64,000 bases of DNA. Source: a virus. Shown here piece after piece: positions 19,184 to 61,934 of the stretch. The notes beneath the pieces are model-generated. The model was not told the origin of the DNA. It worked only from the letters and a program-made list of their open reading frames with translations, and ran no database searches. The position numbers and the translations under genes were made by a program. Location: positions 1-64,000 of the IMG/VR virus record IMGVR_UViG_3300018079_000001. The stretch is one strand, 5' to 3'. Within the stretch, counting starts at the first letter, position 1; each line of letters begins with the position of its first letter.

Positions 19184-21666
19184 AAGTTACCGTAATCGGC
19201 TACTCGGGCAACGATCACATTGTTATTGGTGAGCTACGTGTACTCGGTGGCAAAATTGTCGTCGCGCCGAATCCTCACTACCGAAATCAAGATCGCGCCC
19301 GTAAAATACTAGAGTCGATTGCAACTGACCCTGTACGGTGGGCTGGACAAAAAATCGGTCCGGACAAAGTACAGGTGTTTATGAATCTGTTGCATACGCA
19401 GTATAGTGGCTCGTACTTGCGTGTTACTAAGCCGGAGATTGACAGCCTGAAGAAGTGGGATGAAGCTGACCATCCGCGCGTGGGCTCTGGCGAACACGGT
19501 GGCGAGTTCACGTCTGGTGGTGGCGGTGGAGCGGGAGCGGCTGACGACACGAAATCCTGGACGAAGGACAAGGCCCCGGCAGACCAGGAGCGCGCTGCGA
19601 AGTTGGAAACGGAGCGACAGACGGCGGTCGGCAACGTCGAGAAGCTGGTGTCAGGCGTAACCGGCTCCGACGAGAGTGGTCAGGCGTTGACGAGTCCGTC
19701 CCAAGTCAAGACGTGGGCGAACATGCCGCAAGAGTGGCAGGGGCACGCGGCGAACGGATTCATCAGTGACTACGTCAATGGCAACATGCCCGCCAGTGAA
19801 GAGTGGCAATCCAAACCCCACACGTGGGACCAGGTGCCGCAAGATTGGAAGGACAAGGGCAAAGCGGACTATCTGACCGGGTACGCTGTTGGTGATAGCC
19901 CTACGCCCGCTGCTCTTGCCGAGGGCGTGGCGAATTGGGAGAAGATGCCCGATCAGGAAAAGCTGGAATACTCACAGCAGATGTACAACCAAAATGCTGC
20001 AAAGGAACGGCAGAGACTCACTGACGAGGCGGGCAGCCTGTGGGGTGACATGGGCGACGAGGGTAAGCTAAACTTCGCGCAAACCGAGGCGAAGGACTTC
20101 CCTGAGTTAGCGGTCGAGGAAGATGACCCTGACTCCGACGAGCCGCCGAGTGAAATGTCTGTTGATGATTTCGGTGATTGGGACGGGCTTCCGAGCGACT
20201 GGCAGGAGAAGACAAAAGAGAAGTGGATGGAGGACTCCTACGCCGAGTTCGAGCAGAGCGAGAAGGAATCATTCGAGCCCGACCGCGACTACCACGAAGA
20301 GCGCGTCTCCGAGGACGAGGATGCGGTGCACGCCCTGATCAAGGAAATTCCCGAGGAAAACTACATCTACCCTGGCATGGGCGAGTACGAGACACCGGAG
20401 GATGCGGAGGAAGGTGGAGCCGAGGACAAACGCCGCGAGAAAGAGTGGCAGGAAAACTTCGACCTGAAGGCGTCGGTCGATGACGGCGCGTTCACCTGGG
20501 ACAAAAATGGCGAACTGACTGTGGATACTGACAGGTTGGTCTTCCACAAAAATCCTCACGAGGATGACGCGCAGCAGATGATCCCTGGCGTTGATCGCGC
20601 GGAGTTGTCGAACGCGTACAAGAAAAGCCAGTGGGAAGGCGTTGCTCGGGACTACGAAAAAGAGTTCAAGGCGAAGTTCGAGAAGGCCGTCGAGAAGAGC
20701 ATGGAGGAAGAGTCCGAGAACTACGAACCGGACAAATCCTCTGTCGAAGAGTACATGGAGCAGCAGTGGGATGACGGCTTTAGCGACAAGCAGAAGTTCA
20801 AGCACGCGCAGAACTACCTGTCTGACGAGACGGTCGAGAGTGATCAAGAATCGACAGCAGGCAGTGGTGGACCAATCCGCATACCGAAAGCCTTCGAGTT
20901 GTTCAGCGGCGAAGACGAAAAGAACCCTGGCGACTACAAGATGACCGGGCGCCTGGGTCGTGCGCTCACCATCGCCCGTGCCGAGCAGATTGCGAAAGAA
21001 CGCGGCATCGAGGATTTTGGTGGTGTCAGTTCGATGGAGAGTTTGGGCAACACGCTGTGGGAGGGCTGGAAAGGTTCGTCCACAAACAGCCACGGTAAGT
21101 TGCTTCAGGTTGCGTCGGCGGACGAGTTGGGCGGCAATTTGCAACCGTGGCTCGCTGAGGAAGCAGACGCGATTCGCAAGAACAGAGGATACCCGGCCGC
21201 AAAGGCATACGTGCGCGGGCTGTGGGAAACTTCACAGTACCTCATGCACAAGGCGGGCATGAAGGAACTGGACATATACCGGGGCATCATGGTGGACGGC
21301 GACAAGTTGGCAGCAGAAAAAACCGAGCGCGTCGTGGTACACGGCAACGATATGGAGCGTATTGCAGAAAAGCACTTCGACCAGAACGGAGCCGCGTCGT
21401 TCACAATGAAGCGCGACGTGGCAAACGGCTGGAACGGCATCGGGCACAACATGCCGCCGAACCCGAAGCGGGTCGTGCTTCGCGCTCGTGTCCCTTTAAC
21501 GGCTGTGCTTGCGCTGCCCGCGTATGGCAAGAACTACCACGAGGAAAAGGAAGTCGTCGTGGTTGGCACCCCGTGGAAGAAGTGGGACGCCTGGAAGCAC
21601 AAGGCCCCGACGATTGGGGAGACGGAATCAGACGTAGCGCTCAAATGGAGGACGGCTCGTGCTTGA
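19180..21666 (+). CDS. Head-associated polyprotein 2: small N-terminal domain + HPR motif + shared helical domain + C-terminal ADP-ribosyltransferase-like domain
   Basis: TTG start with RBS GGAGG; WDEADHPR..GGEF; IYRG, ASFT, HEEKEVVV (R-S-ExE). Confidence 0.75.
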   Translation: MKVTVIGYSGNDHIVIGELRVLGGKIVVAPNPHYRNQDRARKILESIATDPVRWAGQKIGPDKVQVFMNLLHTQYSGSYLRVTKPEIDSLKKWDEADHPRVGSGEHGGEFTSGGGGGAGAADDTKSWTKDKAPADQERAAKLETERQTAVGNVEKLVSGVTGSDESGQALTSPSQVKTWANMPQEWQGHAANGFISDYVNGNMPASEEWQSKPHTWDQVPQDWKDKGKADYLTGYAVGDSPTPAALAEGVANWEKMPDQEKLEYSQQMYNQNAAKERQRLTDEAGSLWGDMGDEGKLNFAQTEAKDFPELAVEEDDPDSDEPPSEMSVDDFGDWDGLPSDWQEKTKEKWMEDSYAEFEQSEKESFEPDRDYHEERVSEDEDAVHALIKEIPEENYIYPGMGEYETPEDAEEGGAEDKRREKEWQENFDLKASVDDGAFTWDKNGELTVDTDRLVFHKNPHEDDAQQMIPGVDRAELSNAYKKSQWEGVARDYEKEFKAKFEKAVEKSMEEESENYEPDKSSVEEYMEQQWDDGFSDKQKFKHAQNYLSDETVESDQESTAGSGGPIRIPKAFELFSGEDEKNPGDYKMTGRLGRALTIARAEQIAKERGIEDFGGVSSMESLGNTLWEGWKGSSTNSHGKLLQVASADELGGNLQPWLAEEADAIRKNRGYPAAKAYVRGLWETSQYLMHKAGMKELDIYRGIMVDGDKLAAEKTERVVVHGNDMERIAEKHFDQNGAASFTMKRDVANGWNGIGHNMPPNPKRVVLRARVPLTAVLALPAYGKNYHEEKEVVVVGTPWKKWDAWKHKAPTIGETESDVALKWRTARA

Positions 21667-24088
21667 GATAGAACTGGACAAACCTGGCGACCCTCACTGG
21701 CTGTCCAAGCCGAAGAAGCTGCGCAAGTTCGACCCGAGTCAGCAGCGTGACGAGGACGGCAAATGGTCGGAGACGGGTGCGGGAGGTGGCGCGACCACCG
21801 AACCGAAGGGCAGCGCAGGTCACGGATACGAGGCCCCGAAGGGGCAGGCTAGCTTACCGGCCGAAGCCAAGGACATCGCGGACGAATACGATTCCGCCCC
21901 CGAGATCGGACCAGGCGCAAAGGAAGCGTGGGCGAAGCTGTCGGCTGACATTGACCGGGACTTCGCCGAGATCACCAAGACGGTTGCAGTCGAGAAGGTC
22001 ACAGGTCAGCCGTACTCGTCGATCGACGAGATGTTCGCCGACATCGACGCTGGCCGCTTCAAGGTGACGACCGACTACTCGCAGCATCCGCTGTGGTCGG
22101 AGGATCAGAACTGGAAGTTTCGTGTGGTGCATGACTACTACGGACACTACAAGACGGGCGACAAGAGCGTGGACTTCTCGCTGGAAGGCGAACGTAGCGC
22201 GTTCTTGAGCCAGGCGCAACGGTCAAGCGACCTGGACGCGCGTCGGGCGTTGCAGACCGAAGTATACGGGCAAGCATCCGCGTTCTACAAGAACGGTGCA
22301 TTTGGCAAGCAGAAGGTGTATCTGCCGGGAGCGGACGTTGCGGAGCGGTGGACCGCGCCGGCAGCGCAGGACTTCATCACGGCGCGTGACCGGAACCCTC
22401 GGGGGGACTTCTTCTCGCACCTGGAGCCGGGCGACCTGAAAGGCTACAAGCTGATCATGAATGAGTCGCACTCGGCGGGAGCGGCCGTTGCGCCCGATGG
22501 CGACATTCAGAACGTGTTCCGCAACCCCAACTCGCCGAAGGGTGCCGGGACAGCCGCATTGCACGAGGCTGTACGGCAGGGCGGGCTGATGCTCGACGCG
22601 TACGAATACGAGACTCCGGGTCAGCCGGGCCTGCCAGACGTGTACCGCAAGGCGGGGTTCGTCGAGACGGGCCGCATGAAGTTCAACCCGGCGTACCGTC
22701 CAGCCTGGGGACCAGAGCGGCGGCCAGATGTTGTGTTCATGGCTTACGTGGGTGGCGATCAATCGAAGTCGCCGAAGTCAGACCACTACTACCAGCCGCA
22801 CGAATGGGATCGTGCTAAGAAGGAATCCCTGGCCTCGGCCGATGCGCCAGGCGAGAGCGAAATAGCACGGCAACTGCGTGAGCAGCGCTCCCGTCGCGCA
22901 TATCAGGATGTGAACAGGCCGAAGCTGCCGCCAGAGGTAGATCAGGCACTGAGAGGGCTCGGCAAGTCAGTGCTCTCGTCCAAGGACCGTGAGGACCTGA
23001 AAATCAAAACGAACAAAAAGAAGTGGGGTGGTCGGCCACATGTCTTCACTGCCGCCGAGTGGACGCACCCGAACGGACATCCGCGCTGCGTTCGTTGCGG
23101 CGACGAGGAACCGAGTGACGGGCTGTGTATGCCGGAGTTGCTGAAGTGGGCAACCATGCTCGATGTTGCCATGTCTGGCACTCATCAGGTGGATAGTGGT
23201 AAAATAAAAGAGAAGGGAACCTTCATGTCGAAGAGTTGGATCGCAGAGTTTCATGCCGATTGCATCACAAAGGGAGCCGCCTGCTCCGTGAAGTGGCCAG
23301 TGTGCCCCGAGAAGAAAGCTGCCGTCGAGAAGTACATCCGCGAAGAGGGTGGGAAGTTCAACGTCTACTCCGAGGACGGCAAGAAACTCGGCACGCATTC
23401 GACCCGAGCCGAGGCCGCCGCGCAGCTTCGCGCAATCGAGGCGAACAAGGACGCGACGCGCGGATATCCCGAGTTGGGTGTACCTCCGGCTCCAGTCGCG
23501 ATGAAGGCATTGCAGGGTGCATGGAACGCGTACGCGAAGTCGGTCGGGATCGTGTTCAAATCTGAGGAAGTTCAAGCTGAGCCGGTCGAAAAGGGCGTGT
23601 ACCGAGTCGCGGCTCCGGGCGGGAAGTGGGTATACTTCGCGGTCGAGGGTGACCAAGCGGGGCGGGTCGAGTATCAGCGGAAGAACGGTATGCTGGCCCC
23701 GGTGGTGAAGGCCGAGAAGCAGCGCTATACCCTCGGCGCCGTGTACGCGCCGGGTGAGACGGATTTTCATGGCGACACCATGACCGAAGTCGAATTGGAA
23801 AAGGCGGCGTGGGCGTTCGCACAGAAGGACGGGCTCACGGGCCGCGTCGGGCTCATGCACCAATCAGGCACGGAAAAAGCGGGCAAGGTAGTCGAGTCAT
23901 ACGTCTACCGTGGTCCGGTGTGGAAGTTCAAGGACACCTCGGGTGTGACTCAGACGATCACACCGGGCACGTGGATGCTCGGTGTCGTGTGGGAACCGGA
24001 GGGCTGGAATCAAATCGAACGTGGCAGCGTGCGGGGTTATTCACTCCAAGGGGTTGCCCGCAAGTTCGCCAATGGGGAGGAAGTATAA
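21659..24088 (+). CDS. Head-associated polyprotein 3: HDxxGH domain + GNAT-like domain + Zn finger + C-terminal XkdF-type prohead serine protease
   Basis: FRVVHDYYGH; GDIQNVF..KGAG..GG.MLDAY..YRKAGF; protease GAVYAPG..D.HGD, MH, VVESY, GTWMLG, GYSLQG. Confidence 0.8.
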   Translation: MLEIELDKPGDPHWLSKPKKLRKFDPSQQRDEDGKWSETGAGGGATTEPKGSAGHGYEAPKGQASLPAEAKDIADEYDSAPEIGPGAKEAWAKLSADIDRDFAEITKTVAVEKVTGQPYSSIDEMFADIDAGRFKVTTDYSQHPLWSEDQNWKFRVVHDYYGHYKTGDKSVDFSLEGERSAFLSQAQRSSDLDARRALQTEVYGQASAFYKNGAFGKQKVYLPGADVAERWTAPAAQDFITARDRNPRGDFFSHLEPGDLKGYKLIMNESHSAGAAVAPDGDIQNVFRNPNSPKGAGTAALHEAVRQGGLMLDAYEYETPGQPGLPDVYRKAGFVETGRMKFNPAYRPAWGPERRPDVVFMAYVGGDQSKSPKSDHYYQPHEWDRAKKESLASADAPGESEIARQLREQRSRRAYQDVNRPKLPPEVDQALRGLGKSVLSSKDREDLKIKTNKKKWGGRPHVFTAAEWTHPNGHPRCVRCGDEEPSDGLCMPELLKWATMLDVAMSGTHQVDSGKIKEKGTFMSKSWIAEFHADCITKGAACSVKWPVCPEKKAAVEKYIREEGGKFNVYSEDGKKLGTHSTRAEAAAQLRAIEANKDATRGYPELGVPPAPVAMKALQGAWNAYAKSVGIVFKSEEVQAEPVEKGVYRVAAPGGKWVYFAVEGDQAGRVEYQRKNGMLAPVVKAEKQRYTLGAVYAPGETDFHGDTMTEVELEKAAWAFAQKDGLTGRVGLMHQSGTEKAGKVVESYVYRGPVWKFKDTSGVTQTITPGTWMLGVVWEPEGWNQIERGSVRGYSLQGVARKFANGEEV
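23196..23213 (+). promoter_or_regulatory. Promoter motif A copy 3, internal to polyprotein 3, before in-frame ATG 23225
   Basis: GTGGTAAAATAAAAGAGA followed by AGGGA and an in-frame ATG. Confidence 0.65.
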
Positions 24089-56458: not shown

Positions 56459-58093
56459 ATGGAACTGCTGAAAGCATTCAAGGCCGCCCGCGTGGCGGCG
56501 GTGCCGATTGTCGCCGTGTCGTGCTTCGACCCGGCCGACGTGATCAAGAAGATTCGCGCGTCGAACGAAGAGGGCGCGAAGACGCCGATCCCGCTTGTGC
56601 AGTGGGATGCAATGGACGGAATGAAGGGCCTGAACACGGCGGGCAAGGCGGCGGTAGCTGCCGTGCTGAAGGGTGACGAGAAAGACTGGCCGGGCATGAC
56701 GAGCAACCCAGGTGCCGCGCTCGGGTTCATGAGCGAGCTACCCGGCGAGCAACGCGAGGGCGGTCGGCCGGACGGTGCCATTCAAATGCGCGGTACGATC
56801 GTGTTCGCCCTGAACCTGCACAACTACTTCGAGGATCGGCCGAGCAAGGAAAACGCGCCGATCGTGCAGGGCGTGTGGAATCTGCGGGACCGGTTCAAGG
56901 CCAACCGGCGCACGCTCGTGGTGCTCGGGCCTGGCTTCAAATTTCCGGCTGAGATCGCGAATGACGTGATCAGCCTGGACGTGCCGATGCCGACCGACGA
57001 GGAACTGACCGCGATCATCGCCAAGGAAGTTTCGGGTGTCGCGGGCCTCGCTGCGCTGGACGAGAAGACGATGCAGTCCGCCGTTGATGCGGTGCGCGGG
57101 CTGCCGAGCGCGTTCACGGTCGAGCAGGTATCGCGGATGTCCATGACGAAAGAGGGCATCGCGATCGACGAGTTGTGGGAGCGGAAGATCAGTACGATGG
57201 AGATGACTTCGGGCCTGAGCGTGGACCGGGGAACCGAGACGTTCGATGATGCAGGCGGGCTGGACCAGTTTAAGACGTTCGGTCTGCGGCTGGTCAAGAG
57301 CGAGAAGTCGCCGCTTCTGTACGTGCGCATTGACGAGATCGAGAAGTTTCTCGGTGGACTCGGTGGTGGCGGTAACGCGGGCGACAACACGGGCGTGTCT
57401 CAGGATGCGCTCGGGGTGTTCCTGCGCGAGATGGAAGACAACGGCTGGAATGGCCTGATCGCACTCGGCCATGCCGGCGCGGGAAAGTCGCTGATCACGA
57501 AGGGCCTCGCGAATACCGCCTCGAAGCTGACCGGGCGGCGGGTCCTGAGTGTGGCTCTGGACCTGGGTGCGACGAAGAACAGCCTGCTCGGTAAGAGTGA
57601 AGAGAGGTTGCGCACTCTATTCAAGGTGCTCAAGGCGGTCGGGGGTAAGCGCGTGTGCTTCATCGCCACGTGTAACGACCTGGACGTGATGCCGCCTGCT
57701 CTGCGTCGGCGGTTCAAACTCGGTATGTGGATGTTCGACTTGCCGACCCGCCCGCAGAAAGACGCAATCTGGAAGATCAACCTGACGAAGTTTGGTCTGA
57801 AGAAGCCGGCACGGCTGCCGGACGATACGGACTGGACTGGCGCAGACATTCGTAACGTGTGTGAGCAGGCCGATCTGCTTGGTTGCTCGCTGGACGAGGC
57901 GTGCAACTACGTCGTATTCGTCGCGAAGAACGACCCGGACAGCATCTCGCGTCTTCGGGCCAAGGCGGACGGGAAGTACCTGGACGCCAACCGGCCTGGT
58001 GTGTATCGGGCCGCGCGACAGGAAGAGCTAGTGCCGAGCCTGGACGCTCCAACGCAGGGGCGAGCCAAGGTGAGCACGGACGAGGAAGTCTAA
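56459..58093 (+). CDS. Ycf46-like AAA+ ATPase with rearranged Walker motifs; ends RAKVSTDEEV
   Basis: TFDDAGGL, VRIDEIEK, GHAGAGKS, LDLG..SLLGKSE, IATCN..PPALRRRF, WTGADIRNVC. Confidence 0.85.
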   Translation: MELLKAFKAARVAAVPIVAVSCFDPADVIKKIRASNEEGAKTPIPLVQWDAMDGMKGLNTAGKAAVAAVLKGDEKDWPGMTSNPGAALGFMSELPGEQREGGRPDGAIQMRGTIVFALNLHNYFEDRPSKENAPIVQGVWNLRDRFKANRRTLVVLGPGFKFPAEIANDVISLDVPMPTDEELTAIIAKEVSGVAGLAALDEKTMQSAVDAVRGLPSAFTVEQVSRMSMTKEGIAIDELWERKISTMEMTSGLSVDRGTETFDDAGGLDQFKTFGLRLVKSEKSPLLYVRIDEIEKFLGGLGGGGNAGDNTGVSQDALGVFLREMEDNGWNGLIALGHAGAGKSLITKGLANTASKLTGRRVLSVALDLGATKNSLLGKSEERLRTLFKVLKAVGGKRVCFIATCNDLDVMPPALRRRFKLGMWMFDLPTRPQKDAIWKINLTKFGLKKPARLPDDTDWTGADIRNVCEQADLLGCSLDEACNYVVFVAKNDPDSISRLRAKADGKYLDANRPGVYRAARQEELVPSLDAPTQGRAKVSTDEEV

Positions 58094-58200
58094 CCGAGTG
58101 GAGGGTGCCCGGGCGCAAGGCAGGTAACGCGGACACCGCTGAAGGCCGAAAGCCTGAAGGCGACTAGGTGCCGCCCCGTAAACTCACAACGGAGGGAAAC

Positions 58201-58407
58201 ATGGCAGACAGTTTCGAGATTCAGATTCTCGATGACGGCACGATCAAGAGCACGACGGGTAAGGTTGGCGCGCAGAACCACCAGAGTGCCGAGGGCTTCT
58301 TCGGGATGCTGGCCCGCGTGATGGGCGGCAAGACGACCCGTAACCGTCGCGGCGAACACGCTCACGTGCACTCGCACGGTGAGGGCGAGCAACACGAGCA
58401 CGCGTAA
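58201..58407 (+). CDS. DUF2997-like small protein (His-rich tail)
   Basis: FEIQILDDGTIK...LARVMGG; adjacent to the Ycf46-like ATPase; RBS GGAGGG. Confidence 0.55.
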   Translation: MADSFEIQILDDGTIKSTTGKVGAQNHQSAEGFFGMLARVMGGKTTRNRRGEHAHVHSHGEGEQHEHA

Positions 58408-58444
58408 CCTTTAACCGGGCGAGAGCCTGAGACAGGAGCCACAT

Positions 58445-59389
58445 ATGAGCACGATCCCAACAACGGCAACGGTCATGGAGCAGAGCGTCGCGTTTGTCCT
58501 GGCCTTCTCACGCCCCGGCGTCAAGCGGGTCGTGCGGAAGTCGCAGGTGTCCGAGAAGAGCGAGGGCACCGACAACGCGGTTGTCGTGGATGCCGACAAG
58601 AGCATGATCAACGTCGGCAAGGAAATCATTGACTCCCCGCAACTGCGGGCGATCATCTCGCGCGATGGCGCGGTCCGCCAGTGGGTGAAGGCGCGCAGTC
58701 TGCCGAGTCCGCTGTTCAAGTCGGGTACGACGATCGTGCCGACTGTGCTCGTCGAGGCGGTGTACGAGTACCTCGAAAAGTCGAAGGCTGATCGGGACGC
58801 CGACATCGCGACGTTCCTTGAAGCCTACCCTGGCCTGGTCGAGGAAGCGAAGACGAAACTAGGGCCGCTGTTCGACGCTCGTCAATACCCCGCCGCGACG
58901 GCACTCAAAGGCGCGTTCGAGATGCGGTGGAACATCATCGAATTCGGGACGCCCGGCAAGCTGAAGACTATCAGCAAGGCTCTGTACGATAAAGAGCGCG
59001 CCAAGGCCGAGGCCGAGTGGGCGGACGCCACGTCGCAGATTCGCAACGCGCTTCGCGTGGCGATGGCGGAACTGGTCGAGCACATGATCGAGAAGCTGTC
59101 GTCGGACAACGACGGCAAGGCGAAGACGTTCCGCGATAGCATGGTCAAGAACCTGACCGAGTTTTCCGATTTGTTCAACGCACGCAACCTGACGGGCGAC
59201 TCGGAGTTGGCAGCACTCGTCGAGAAGGCGCAGAAGGTCATGAGCGGCGTGGACGCGAAGTCACTGCGGACTGACGCCGACATCAAGCAGCGTGTGGCTG
59301 ATGGTTTCGCGGAGATCAAGGCGAACCTCGACACGATGGTGATTGACCGCCCGACGCGGGCGTTGACGATCGCTGACGAGGAAGTCTAA
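58445..59389 (+). CDS. DUF3150-like helical protein; ends RALTIADEEV
   Basis: F...YP.LVEEAK..LG.LFD..QYP, FRDSMV.NL.EF..LF..RNLT.D.EL. Confidence 0.6.
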   Translation: MSTIPTTATVMEQSVAFVLAFSRPGVKRVVRKSQVSEKSEGTDNAVVVDADKSMINVGKEIIDSPQLRAIISRDGAVRQWVKARSLPSPLFKSGTTIVPTVLVEAVYEYLEKSKADRDADIATFLEAYPGLVEEAKTKLGPLFDARQYPAATALKGAFEMRWNIIEFGTPGKLKTISKALYDKERAKAEAEWADATSQIRNALRVAMAELVEHMIEKLSSDNDGKAKTFRDSMVKNLTEFSDLFNARNLTGDSELAALVEKAQKVMSGVDAKSLRTDADIKQRVADGFAEIKANLDTMVIDRPTRALTIADEEV

Positions 59390-59472
59390 CAGCGGGACGG
59401 GCGGGGGTTCCTGGGCACCAGGTTCAGAGACGGGCACCGTCTCGCCCCCGCCCGGTACTCATGGAGGGAACA

Positions 59473-59658
59473 ATGGCAGCGAAAGATCGGACGCGAGCAG
59501 GCGCGTACATGATCGCAACACCTTCGGTGCGAATTGCGCATCGACACTACACGCATCTGTGTCCTGCAACGGGGAGGCCGTTGACGTTGTCGTGGTTTGA
59601 TTCGCCGTGGTTTGAGATGATGCGGCGCATGGTGAAGGGTCTGAGACGATCTAACTGA
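59473..59658 (+). CDS. Small hypothetical protein
   Basis: RBS GGAGGG before ATG. Confidence 0.4.
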   Translation: MAAKDRTRAGAYMIATPSVRIAHRHYTHLCPATGRPLTLSWFDSPWFEMMRRMVKGLRRSN

Positions 59659-59886
59659 GAACGAAAACGAGACGGGCAGCATGGCGTTGCCCGTTCACAA
59701 ATGGAGATGACCTATGGCAGTGAGTGACAAGACAGTCCGGGGCGCGTACGAGATACCGGCCGCGCAGGTTGCGCTACAGCATTACGCGCCGTGGTTCGAG
59801 TTGCTGCGAGCGGGCGAGGCTTTGGTTCAAGGGGGTAAACATTTACTCCGGGCGTTGCGCGCCTGGCGAAAGAGGGAGGGTGTCTG

Positions 59887-60207
59887 ATGCCGTGTGATAG
59901 CGTCGTCCTGAACACAGTCGAATTGGACAAGGTCGGTGACCACGATCTACTCGAAAAGGCTCTGGCTGGAGAATTCGGCACCGTGCGCCGCAACGGTACG
60001 ACGATGACGTTCACGTACCAGGGACGCACAGTCACGATCCGCAACGGCCGCGCCGAGTCGAGCCTGAGCGAGAGCACGCTGCAACAATTGGTCGGCCAGG
60101 TGAAGCAGGCGTACAGCCGCGAGGCCGTGCACATGGCGGCGAAGCGGTTCGGGTGGATGATCAAACCCGGCAGGGACAAGAACAACTTCACGGTTGTGAA
60201 GAACTAG
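59887..60207 (+). CDS. DUF1257/Ycf35-like protein
   Basis: MPC...D.DLLEKAL...VKQAYS.EAV...AKRFGW. Confidence 0.6.
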   Translation: MPCDSVVLNTVELDKVGDHDLLEKALAGEFGTVRRNGTTMTFTYQGRTVTIRNGRAESSLSESTLQQLVGQVKQAYSREAVHMAAKRFGWMIKPGRDKNNFTVVKN

Positions 60208-60208
60208 C

Positions 60209-60703
60209 ATGTGGCCGGGCGAGTTTCCTGACGATGCGGGTAGTGCCAGTGGTGACTGGACTGTCCGCCTGGTTGGCCGTGCGCTGATTGAAGCCACGGC
60301 GGCGAGCACGGGTAAACCGTTCATGGCGCGGATTGTAGGACGTGACAATACGTACACGTGGCAGCGTCAGTGGCTCAAGCCGAAGTGGGAGTTTCCCGCG
60401 CGCAACGCGAACCCCGCCGCGATCGTGCGGCTGGTCCTGCCTGTGTCTGCTGTCGGCAAGTTGCCGGCTGCTCTGGACATACGGTGGGGGCCAGCGACGG
60501 GCGGCACGGGTATCGACGTGAAGAACGGACAGGCGTTTCGCTACTGCGGGTATCGTAGTCTGTTTATCCTGGACGCGGCTGGCTTGCGGCAGGCGACTGA
60601 GCAGCACGTGACGTGGCTGCTCGACGAGGGCATCGTGGTTTCCGGACCACCACGTCGTGAGCCGGGCTCGCGCCCGGTGCTGAGGTTCGATGAAGAAGTT
60701 TGA
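60209..60703 (+). CDS. Hypothetical protein; ends RPVLRFDEEV
   Basis: KPFMARIVGRD..Y.WQRQWL. Confidence 0.6.
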   Translation: MWPGEFPDDAGSASGDWTVRLVGRALIEATAASTGKPFMARIVGRDNTYTWQRQWLKPKWEFPARNANPAAIVRLVLPVSAVGKLPAALDIRWGPATGGTGIDVKNGQAFRYCGYRSLFILDAAGLRQATEQHVTWLLDEGIVVSGPPRREPGSRPVLRFDEEV

Positions 60704-60732
60704 CGGGCCAGCGGCCTGAGAAAGGGACGGCA

Positions 60733-61299
60733 ATGGCGACAACGGTAGAAAAACGACAATTCAAAAGCAGCCGCCCCGGATCGGCGGCACTGTATACCGC
60801 CGTCGTGTACGACGACGGCACCGCGTCCTGCGACTGCCCTGGCTGGCGGTTCCAGCGTTCAGGCCAGCCGCGAGGCTGCAAGCACACCGCCACCATGTTG
60901 ACCGGCACAACGGTCAAGGTGGTGACGAACGCCGAGATGGCGCGCATGGCGTTGCGTGGTGAGCAGTTCAACGTGATCAAGCGGTGGACGATTGCGCAGA
61001 GCGGCGCACAGATGGTGAGCCTGCGTATGGGGGAGAGCGCGTCTGCCGAGCAGACGGTGCGTCGGATCATGAAAGAGGATAACGCACCGCAGTCTTACCC
61101 GGCGCGACGGGATCGCTGGTCGCAGGCTGAGGGGAAGTGGGTGTCGGTGCCGAAGAAGATGACGCCCGAGATGCGCACGCCTGATCCACTGGCGGCGCGG
61201 GACTTCTTTCCGTCGAAACCGAAGCCGCAGACGACGCGGCGTGCAGAGCAGATCGAACAACCAACACGAGCACGCCTAGCGTTCGATGAAGAGGTATAG
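60733..61299 (+). CDS. SWIM zinc-finger protein; ends RARLAFDEEV
   Basis: SS....YT......SCDCPGWRF.....CKH. Confidence 0.75.
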   Translation: MATTVEKRQFKSSRPGSAALYTAVVYDDGTASCDCPGWRFQRSGQPRGCKHTATMLTGTTVKVVTNAEMARMALRGEQFNVIKRWTIAQSGAQMVSLRMGESASAEQTVRRIMKEDNAPQSYPARRDRWSQAEGKWVSVPKKMTPEMRTPDPLAARDFFPSKPKPQTTRRAEQIEQPTRARLAFDEEV

Positions 61300-61301
61300 T
61301 C

Positions 61302-61685
61302 ATGATAGTTCTGAAAGAGATGGACCCGTTCAAGCTGAAAGAGTACGTGCACGCTATTCAGCGGTGCGGTGATCACCCGTTGCCGGGTCTGACCGACAGT
61401 GACGTGCTCGACAAGGTTGTTGAAATTCTCGACTGCTACATCGAATCGGCCGAGACGTACGAAGACACGTCGTCGAAGATCATCTTCCTGCTCGACGATG
61501 GGCGGGTCGGTGTGTTCGAAGAGTGGTCCGACTCGTCGGGTCACGGCTGACAGTGCGGCGCATCGTGGGGGCTGTATGCTTCCAAAGACGCAGCATGCAC
61601 TGAGGGCAAGCTGGTATGGGATGAAACCGCGACGCTAATCGAGCGGCTGCAACGGGCGCCGATTGCGTTCGATGAAGAGGTATGA
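61302..61685 (+). CDS. Hypothetical protein with in-frame UGA at 61548-61550 (candidate selenocysteine); extended product ends RAPIAFDEEV
   Basis: Frame stays open for 44 codons after TGA (QCGASWGLY...) and ends with the shared DEEV tag. Confidence 0.65.
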
Positions 61686-61766
61686 TACAGCGGGAGCCGT
61701 GGGTGTACGGCTTGGCGGGAGCCTGGCTGTCAGGCAAACCTTAACCCTGCCCGCACCGCTGGTTTT

Positions 61767-61844: not shown

Positions 61845-61934
61845 GTAAGCGATGGGCGAATTGGCTGAGCCCGCCTGTCTGTAAAACAGGCGCAGTGACC
61901 CTGCATGGAGGTTCGATTCCTCCCGCTTGCACCA
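61845..61934 (+). tRNA. tRNA-Tyr(GTA), long variable arm
   Basis: GTAAGCG/CGCTTGC acceptor, CCTGT-CTGTAAA-ACAGG anticodon arm, GCAG/CTGC variable arm, T arm, encoded CCA. Confidence 0.88.

Follow-up and report, generated by a model that had tools for sequence, protein, structure and literature searches.

The frame that begins at position 61302 in an uncultured 102-kb phage is closed by a TGA codon after 82 amino acids and remains open beyond it, which raises the question of whether this UGA ends translation or is decoded and, if decoded, as which residue. The phage record comprises 101,821 bp with direct terminal repeats and a G+C content of 59%; the window referred to below is the whole stretch of DNA that was analyzed, namely the first 64 kb of this record. 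It had been predicted from the sequence alone that the locus encodes a selenoprotein made with the SelB and tRNA-Sec of the host, and our analysis supports this claim. The best reading of positions 61302-61685 is a selenoprotein gene in which selenocysteine (Sec) is inserted by the host in a SECIS- and SelB-dependent manner. We regard this reading as likely, with the incorporation of selenium itself being inferred.

Organization of the gene around the UGA codon

The features of the gene are listed in Table 1. The original prediction described an 82-amino-acid ORF ending at TGA 61548-61550, with a frame that stays open beyond it as far as a C-terminal tag shared with other genes, and this description held, both coordinates and translation being exact. 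The GC3 of the N-terminal 82 codons was 0.77. No in-frame ATG, GTG or TTG was present among the 44 codons past the UGA, and therefore this stretch can be translated only by passing the UGA.

Table 1. Features of the candidate selenoprotein gene and their positions in the window
Feature	Position	Strand	Remarks
Shine-Dalgarno sequence GAAGAGG	61288..61294	+	7 nt upstream of the ATG; within the DEEV codons of the preceding SWIM-finger gene; direct sequence reading
N-terminal 82 codons	61302..61547	+	ATG at 61302; carries the conserved C22-G-D-H25-P motif; last residues SDSSGHG
In-frame UGA	61548..61550	+	Codon/residue 83; invariant Cys column among homologs; likely read as selenocysteine (inferred)
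C-terminal 44 codons, QCGASW...RAPIAFDEEV	61551..61682	+	Last beta-strand and helices of the predicted domain
Extended imperfect lower stem of the hairpin	61551..61602	+	From the first base after the UGA onward; unconserved among relatives
Apical SECIS-type hairpin	61566..61584	+	7-bp stem UGGGGGC 61566-72 / GCUUCCA 61578-84 with two G-U pairs; loop UGUAU 61573-77
C-terminal tag RAPIAFDEEV	61653..61682	+	Common to 11 other ORFs of the genome; present only when the UGA is decoded
True stop TGA	61683..61685	+	No SECIS-type hairpin in the right register identified downstream

A genome-wide reassignment of UGA (genetic codes 4 or 25) was rejected, since 8 of the 12 ORFs of the genome that end in the tag, as well as this gene itself, use TGA as their stop, and no suppressor tRNA is encoded. 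The earlier claim that TGA is an ordinary stop elsewhere in the genome, without genome-wide recoding, was thus upheld. A scan of the whole genome for further UGA-plus-hairpin candidates returned only chance-level matches in wrong frames and no other convincing in-frame TGA.

A further small ORF of 21 codons was noted at 61682-61747. Its ATG overlaps the final GTATGA of the gene, its TAA lies just before a tRNA-Glu gene, and the same GAAGAGG motif is found upstream of it; its translation has not been established.

Cysteine at the UGA column of homologs

HMMER was run exhaustively against 1.84 billion representatives and retrieved 39 homologs, mostly viral, which belong to an unannotated family. 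Cys occupied the UGA column in all 28 of the full-length homologs that were aligned, and this residue, being Cys and not Trp, favors Sec. The residues G80, H81 and G82 were invariant across the alignment, and a second invariant Cys was located two residues past the UGA column, giving the motif SD-x-x-GHG-C-Q/R-C. Seven database proteins terminate precisely at GHG, and six of those lie outside the 17 UGA-form genes with DNA that are described below. Ending exactly at GHG is what gene callers yield at an internal stop.

Simpler searches were not informative. A word-index protein search gave nothing beyond the 82-amino-acid product of the window itself, a single-protein scan of viral contigs found no homolog, and two apparent hits, an exact-pattern match (L004) and a match in a genome collection (L009), were rejected as chance matches. 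Pfam, PHROGs and PDB sequence profiles gave no family match, with 0 of the 39 members being hit in Pfam. When the Cys homolog P0004 was searched, only unannotated viral clusters and a weak lead to DUF7574 were obtained, and the lead was not confirmed by a Pfam scan.

The pattern U-x-C-x12-C-x-E recalls that of the SWIM zinc finger (PF04434, CxCxnCxH). This assignment was rejected as a mere resemblance; none of the 39 members gave a Pfam hit, and hhalign against the neighboring SWIM protein returned a probability of 0.1%.

Conservation of the UGA and of the downstream frame in relatives

The UGA codon itself is conserved. TGA was found at this codon in 16 distinct relatives from independent metagenomes, ten of them identified in viral and metagenome contigs and six with a degenerate DNA pattern, so that together with the gene in the window 17 of 17 carry TGA at this codon, and never TAA or TAG. 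The identity of these UGA forms to the protein of the window falls to about 32%. Past the UGA, the relatives continue in frame with Q/R-C-x3-W/..-V-Y/F..., followed by LGLT-x-E-x-R as in the Cys forms, and the real stop is again TGA in 7 of 10 relatives. The value of pN was below that of pS past the UGA in all 8 pairs tested, as it was before the UGA. The downstream part is accordingly not degenerate in relatives; it is conserved and under purifying selection, which favors Sec.

In a maximum-likelihood tree, between 3 (counting well-supported branches) and 5 switches between Sec and Cys are needed, and one Cys form is nested within the main Sec clade. Repeated switching between Sec and Cys is the pattern typical of selenoprotein families.

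These results bear on the possibility that the UGA is an artefact, introduced by faulty sequencing or assembly, or that a gene on its way to decay has only just acquired a nonsense mutation (TGY to TGA). A single substitution indeed suffices to turn TGC into TGA. However, 16 other distinct genes, recovered from independent metagenomes, share this TGA and have intact, conserved frames downstream of it, and the identical 82-amino-acid product was called on 5 contigs, so an assembly slip is unlikely, although no read-level data were available. The conserved TGA, together with a downstream frame that is conserved in relatives and shows pN below pS, rules out that the TGA was misread in sequencing or arose recently by nonsense mutation, and also that the downstream part is a relic without translation. 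An artefact can therefore be set aside almost entirely, subject to the same lack of reads.

Predicted fold of the protein

The coding region continues across the UGA, and the same is predicted for the fold. AlphaFold2, supplied with the 39-row alignment, modeled a single domain that spans the UGA (pLDDT 85.6, pTM 0.77). The order of elements in the model is helix 9-21, strands 39-49, 56-64, 69-77 and 84-92, and helices 95-101 and 110-117. Residue 83 is placed in the turn between strands 69-77 and 84-92, with helix 95-101 coming next; being located between the last two strands, it leaves an 82-amino-acid product that, as predicted by the model, would lack a strand and a helix. The region of the tag was modeled with low confidence. 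Foldseek and VIA-align searches found nothing above Z = 5.3 and matched generic alpha+beta sheets only.

The conserved residues of the family are C22 (with H25, or as a CC variant), H81, U/C83 and C85. The presence of C22, H25, H81, U/C83 and C85 suggests a metal or redox centre, which is an inference only.

It might be argued that the UGA does terminate translation, that the 82-amino-acid protein is functional, and that the 44 downstream codons either are a relic that is no longer translated or act at the RNA level, for instance as a stabilizer or attenuator. In support of this, the 82-amino-acid form is what gene callers report in the window, as they do for 7 homologs, and a stable hairpin lies downstream. 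Against it, relatives with as little as about 32% identity retain an open, conserved frame past the UGA, in which pN is below pS. The downstream part also supplies a beta-strand and a helix of the predicted domain as well as the invariant second Cys, has no start codon of its own, and ends in a protein-level tag carried by 11 other ORFs. We consider termination at the UGA very unlikely.

RNA hairpin downstream of the UGA

RNAfold predicted a single long imperfect hairpin at 61551-61602, which begins with the first base after the UGA. The 60-nt window of this hairpin had a folding energy of -26.7 kcal/mol, within the top 1.5% of genome windows, and a 66-nt stretch reached -31.7 kcal/mol (z = -3.5). 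Two pairings had been proposed earlier. The outer one, between CAGUGC and GCACUG (61551-56 / 61597-602), held in part, as it is present in the minimum-energy fold and is unconserved in relatives. The inner one, between GCAUCG and UG-U-AUGC, failed, as it competes with the conserved apical stem. Comparison of the UGA forms showed that the conserved part of the structure is the apical stem together with its loop UGUAU.

One hairpin of 5-9 bp was found within +13 to +42 in 17 of 17 UGA forms, with a mean energy of -11.2 kcal/mol. Its apical loop starts at +23 to +27 from the U of the UGA, and every loop contains GU, the loops including CGUGU, UGUAU, AGUU, GUU and GUC. The stems of the UGA forms vary in sequence, as in GGUUGGGU/ACCCGACC, CGUGGGA/UCCCACG, GCUGUCGA/UCGACAGC, GCGAGUCG/CGACUCGC and GGUGGCG/CGCCACC. 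When the 17 UGA forms were compared with their local 30-nt backgrounds, the Fisher p value was 1e-7, which is optimistic since the genes are mutually related. In contrast, the hairpin was absent at the equivalent place in 8 of 8 Cys forms (mean -3.7 kcal/mol, Fisher p = 0.96). The difference between UGA and Cys forms was significant for both energies (Mann-Whitney p = 7e-5) and percentiles (p = 2e-6). The SECIS-type hairpin thus occurs in the UGA forms only, which favors Sec.

The stem covaries. Among the five sequences with a common register, 90% of the cells were paired and changes on both sides were seen in 6 of 8 pairs; none of 500 shuffles matched this result, and slid controls were far lower. 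A second register group was left out of this set, the MAFFT alignment being gapped. Against a synonymous-codon null in which the protein sequence is kept, the excess of structure was modest (mean z = -1.06, versus -0.13 for the Cys forms), and the stem thus owes part of its structure to the amino acids encoded. Among local 30-nt windows, the hairpin of the window phage itself ranked within the top 11% and no higher. RNAalifold applied to the ungapped codon alignment predicted no structure; because the register of the hairpin shifts by 1-4 nt between lineages, folds of individual sequences and the same-register subset were used. No SECIS family was matched in Rfam.

According to a published rule, a bacterial SECIS element has a stem of 6-8 bp and, about 20 nt past the UGA, a conserved G in its loop (PMC4605307). 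The geometry of the hairpin in the UGA forms agrees with this description (PMC4605307), the loop G in the window being 24 nt downstream of the UGA.

The main rival to Sec insertion is programmed readthrough without selenium, in which the hairpin slows termination at UGA-C and a near-cognate Cys or Trp tRNA reads the codon, giving a mixture of 82- and 127-amino-acid products. In its favor, a C follows the UGA in 17 of 17 genes, UGA-C being reportedly the weakest termination context in E. coli (Poole et al. 1995); a hairpin lies 3' of the stop; and the Sec machinery of the host is undemonstrated. However, the C after the UGA is imposed by the conserved Gln/Arg codon and is shared by the Cys forms. 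Moreover, the stop is always UGA and never UAG or UAA, it falls inside a single predicted domain at an invariant Cys and not between domains, and at least 3 interchanges of UGA and Cys are required at exactly this codon. The loop GU and its spacing agree with SelB-type SECIS elements, and Trp, the usual misreading of UGA, would ruin the invariant Cys position. On these grounds, we judge readthrough without selenium to be improbable.

Readthrough of the Qbeta A1 type, whose criterion is a complete core with an optional extension and an inserted residue of no importance, was rejected, as this UGA falls between neighboring strands of a single predicted domain, at an invariant Cys, and does not fit the criterion.

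Decoding machinery and tRNA genes

Searches for selB, selD and tRNA-Sec in the phage genome found none of them, and therefore Sec insertion would depend on the host; selA was outside the search. Likewise, no tRNA-Sec was found in the records of four UGA-form relatives or in that of one Cys form. The gene was found in no cultured phage, and the capsid and portal relatives were at most 33% identical; with no cultured phage being close, no host was inferred. A Sec-competent host is thus an inference, as is Sec as the inserted residue.

The phage carries six tRNAs, none of which is a suppressor or a tRNA-Sec. One of them, at 61845-61934, is a class II tRNA-Tyr with anticodon GUA and a long variable arm, which comes immediately after the tRNA-Glu and lies 160 nt downstream of the selenoprotein gene. 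The Rfam tRNA-Sec model outscores the general tRNA model on this gene. Its identification as a tRNA-Sec was rejected, the anticodon being GUA and the score 35 bits against an Rfam threshold of 47 bits.

Another rival explanation is SECIS-directed insertion of cysteine by a Cys-charged tRNA-Sec-like tRNA with a SelB-like factor. Such Cys-charged tRNA-Sec-like systems were reportedly proposed for some bacteria by Mukai et al. (2017). This explanation is equally compatible with all of the SECIS-plus-UGA evidence, and the residue in homologs is Cys. Nevertheless, such systems are rare and the phage encodes no such tRNA or factor. A UGC codon would be simpler, and the repeated keeping of the UGA with its hairpin points to a benefit of Sec. 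SECIS-directed cysteine insertion can hardly be favored over the insertion of Sec.

C-terminal tag and neighboring genes

The original prediction that the downstream frame ends in a shared C-terminal tag was correct, and a tag of the R-A-x5-DEEV type was found at the end of 12 ORFs of the genome. The form of the tag is R-A/P-x5-[DG]-E-E-V, and the ORFs are located at 21638-24088 and 56459-61685 of the window and at 84939-98260 of the genome, past the window. The tagged ORFs are otherwise unrelated and comprise, among others, an AAA+ ATPase, a DUF3150-like protein, a SWIM-finger protein and the candidate selenoprotein. The DNA of the tag copies differs synonymously, so that it is the protein sequence that is conserved. 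In several cases, the tag codons (GAAGAGG) also provide the next gene with its Shine-Dalgarno sequence.

As an alternative to a selenoprotein, it had been suggested that regulated readthrough of the UGA controls whether the DEEV tag is attached. This was not supported. The DEEV tag was absent in 10 of 10 relatives whose 3' ends were read, and all ten keep the UGA and the hairpin; gating of the DEEV tag is therefore not what the UGA evolved for.

The gene is surrounded by genes of early functions or of DNA metabolism. An AAA+ ATPase and a DUF3150 gene were found in both the window phage and the relative L007, and SNF2 helicase or YqaJ exonuclease genes were found elsewhere; there was no constant partner among the phages of the family members. 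In L007 (364-2843; IMGVR_UViG_3300023212_000059), the AAA+ ATPase, DUF3150 and selenoprotein genes occur in the same order, without the DEEV tag. The ATPase and the DUF3150 protein of L007 end in ...GRRIK and ...SRRIKS, respectively, which is possibly another shared C-terminal tag.

The most stable 60-nt fold of the genome (-42.5 kcal/mol) was located at 59396-59455, in the gap after the DUF3150-like gene. It may be a terminator or a regulatory hairpin.

Comparison with known systems

The gene resembles bacterial selenoprotein genes of the E. coli fdhF type in several respects. In both, an in-frame UGA stands where homologs carry Cys, the coding sequence contains a stem-loop immediately 3' of it, and UGA is also an ordinary stop in the same genome; the Cys forms of the phage family lack the hairpin. 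The stem in the phage family is 5-9 bp and the loop GU about 22-25 nt past the UGA, which is again similar. The loop nucleotides of fdhF are numbered G23 and U24, and the loop GU of the phage genes is 2-4 nt further from the UGA. Unlike the fdhF type, the gene is encoded by a phage in which none of the Sec machinery searched for was found, and its family is without relatives in Pfam, PHROGs or the PDB. The putative Sec of the phage protein is located in GHG-U-x-C near conserved Cys and His residues, and not in a thioredoxin-like CxxU/UxxC motif or a formate dehydrogenase site.

Virus-encoded selenoproteins are known from poxviruses, namely the glutathione peroxidases (GPx) of molluscum contagiosum and fowlpox viruses (PMC8310308). 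Like the phage gene, they are encoded by the virus and rely wholly on the Sec machinery of the host, and the SECIS element of fowlpox virus lies inside the coding region. However, they belong to eukaryotic viruses, are captured cellular GPx genes and use an eukaryotic SBP2-type SECIS, whereas the phage gene has a bacterial-type SECIS and represents a phage-specific family of unknown function.

The Qbeta A1 protein is similar in that a phage gene extends past a UGA and C-terminal sequence is added. In Qbeta, the stop divides the coat protein from its extension and the inserted residue is immaterial; by contrast, the UGA of the present gene stands in for an invariant Cys in the interior of one domain and is accompanied by a covarying SECIS-type hairpin.

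A search of the open-access literature found no paper on a phage-encoded selenoprotein. In a review of viral recoding, the poxvirus GPx genes are the sole selenoprotein entries (PMC8310308), and a review of prokaryotic selenoproteins and the paper on the BSepDB database never mention a phage or virus (PMC9312934, PMC13326102).

Proposed mechanism and significance

In the proposed mechanism, positions 61302-61685 would form one gene for a 127-residue protein in which the UGA at codon 83 is decoded as selenocysteine by the tRNA-Sec, SelA, SelD and SelB of the bacterial host. The complex of SelB-GTP with Sec-tRNA-Sec would dock on the hairpin at 61566-61584, which presents its loop GU ~24-25 nt past the UGA, while the UGA occupies the ribosomal A site, and RF2 would be outcompeted. 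Sec would then take the place of the first Cys in GHG-C-x-C, a motif that is invariant. This motif and the residues C22, H25 and H81 are inferred to be the probable components of a centre that binds metal or has a redox function, located in a small alpha/beta domain, which may be part of an early or DNA-metabolism module of the phage.

A bolder reading, which we consider unlikely, is that the selenocysteine obtained from the host acts as a ligand or nucleophile in the Cys/His metal or redox centre of this phage-specific family, and that the tag downstream of the UGA gates a hand-over. In that case, RAxxxxDEEV would be a docking tag past the UGA, and only the protein completed with selenium would be handed to a system that recognizes the tag, possibly the tagged AAA+ ATPase four genes upstream. 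If so, an early function of the phage would be coupled to the selenium status or SelB capacity of the host.

Catalogues of selenoproteins cover bacteria, archaea, eukaryotes and a few poxviruses. If the preferred reading of the gene as a selenoprotein gene is true, viruses of bacteria would also exploit the Sec-insertion machinery of their hosts. The gene would then be a marker for host prediction, since Sec-competent hosts alone would serve, and it would account for a class of "truncated" phage ORFs in databases. The hairpins of the family would provide a compact natural set of SECIS elements, with 17 different stems, for the study of recognition by SelB. The family itself would define a new small domain with a Cys/His motif, the chemistry of which evidently gains from selenium.
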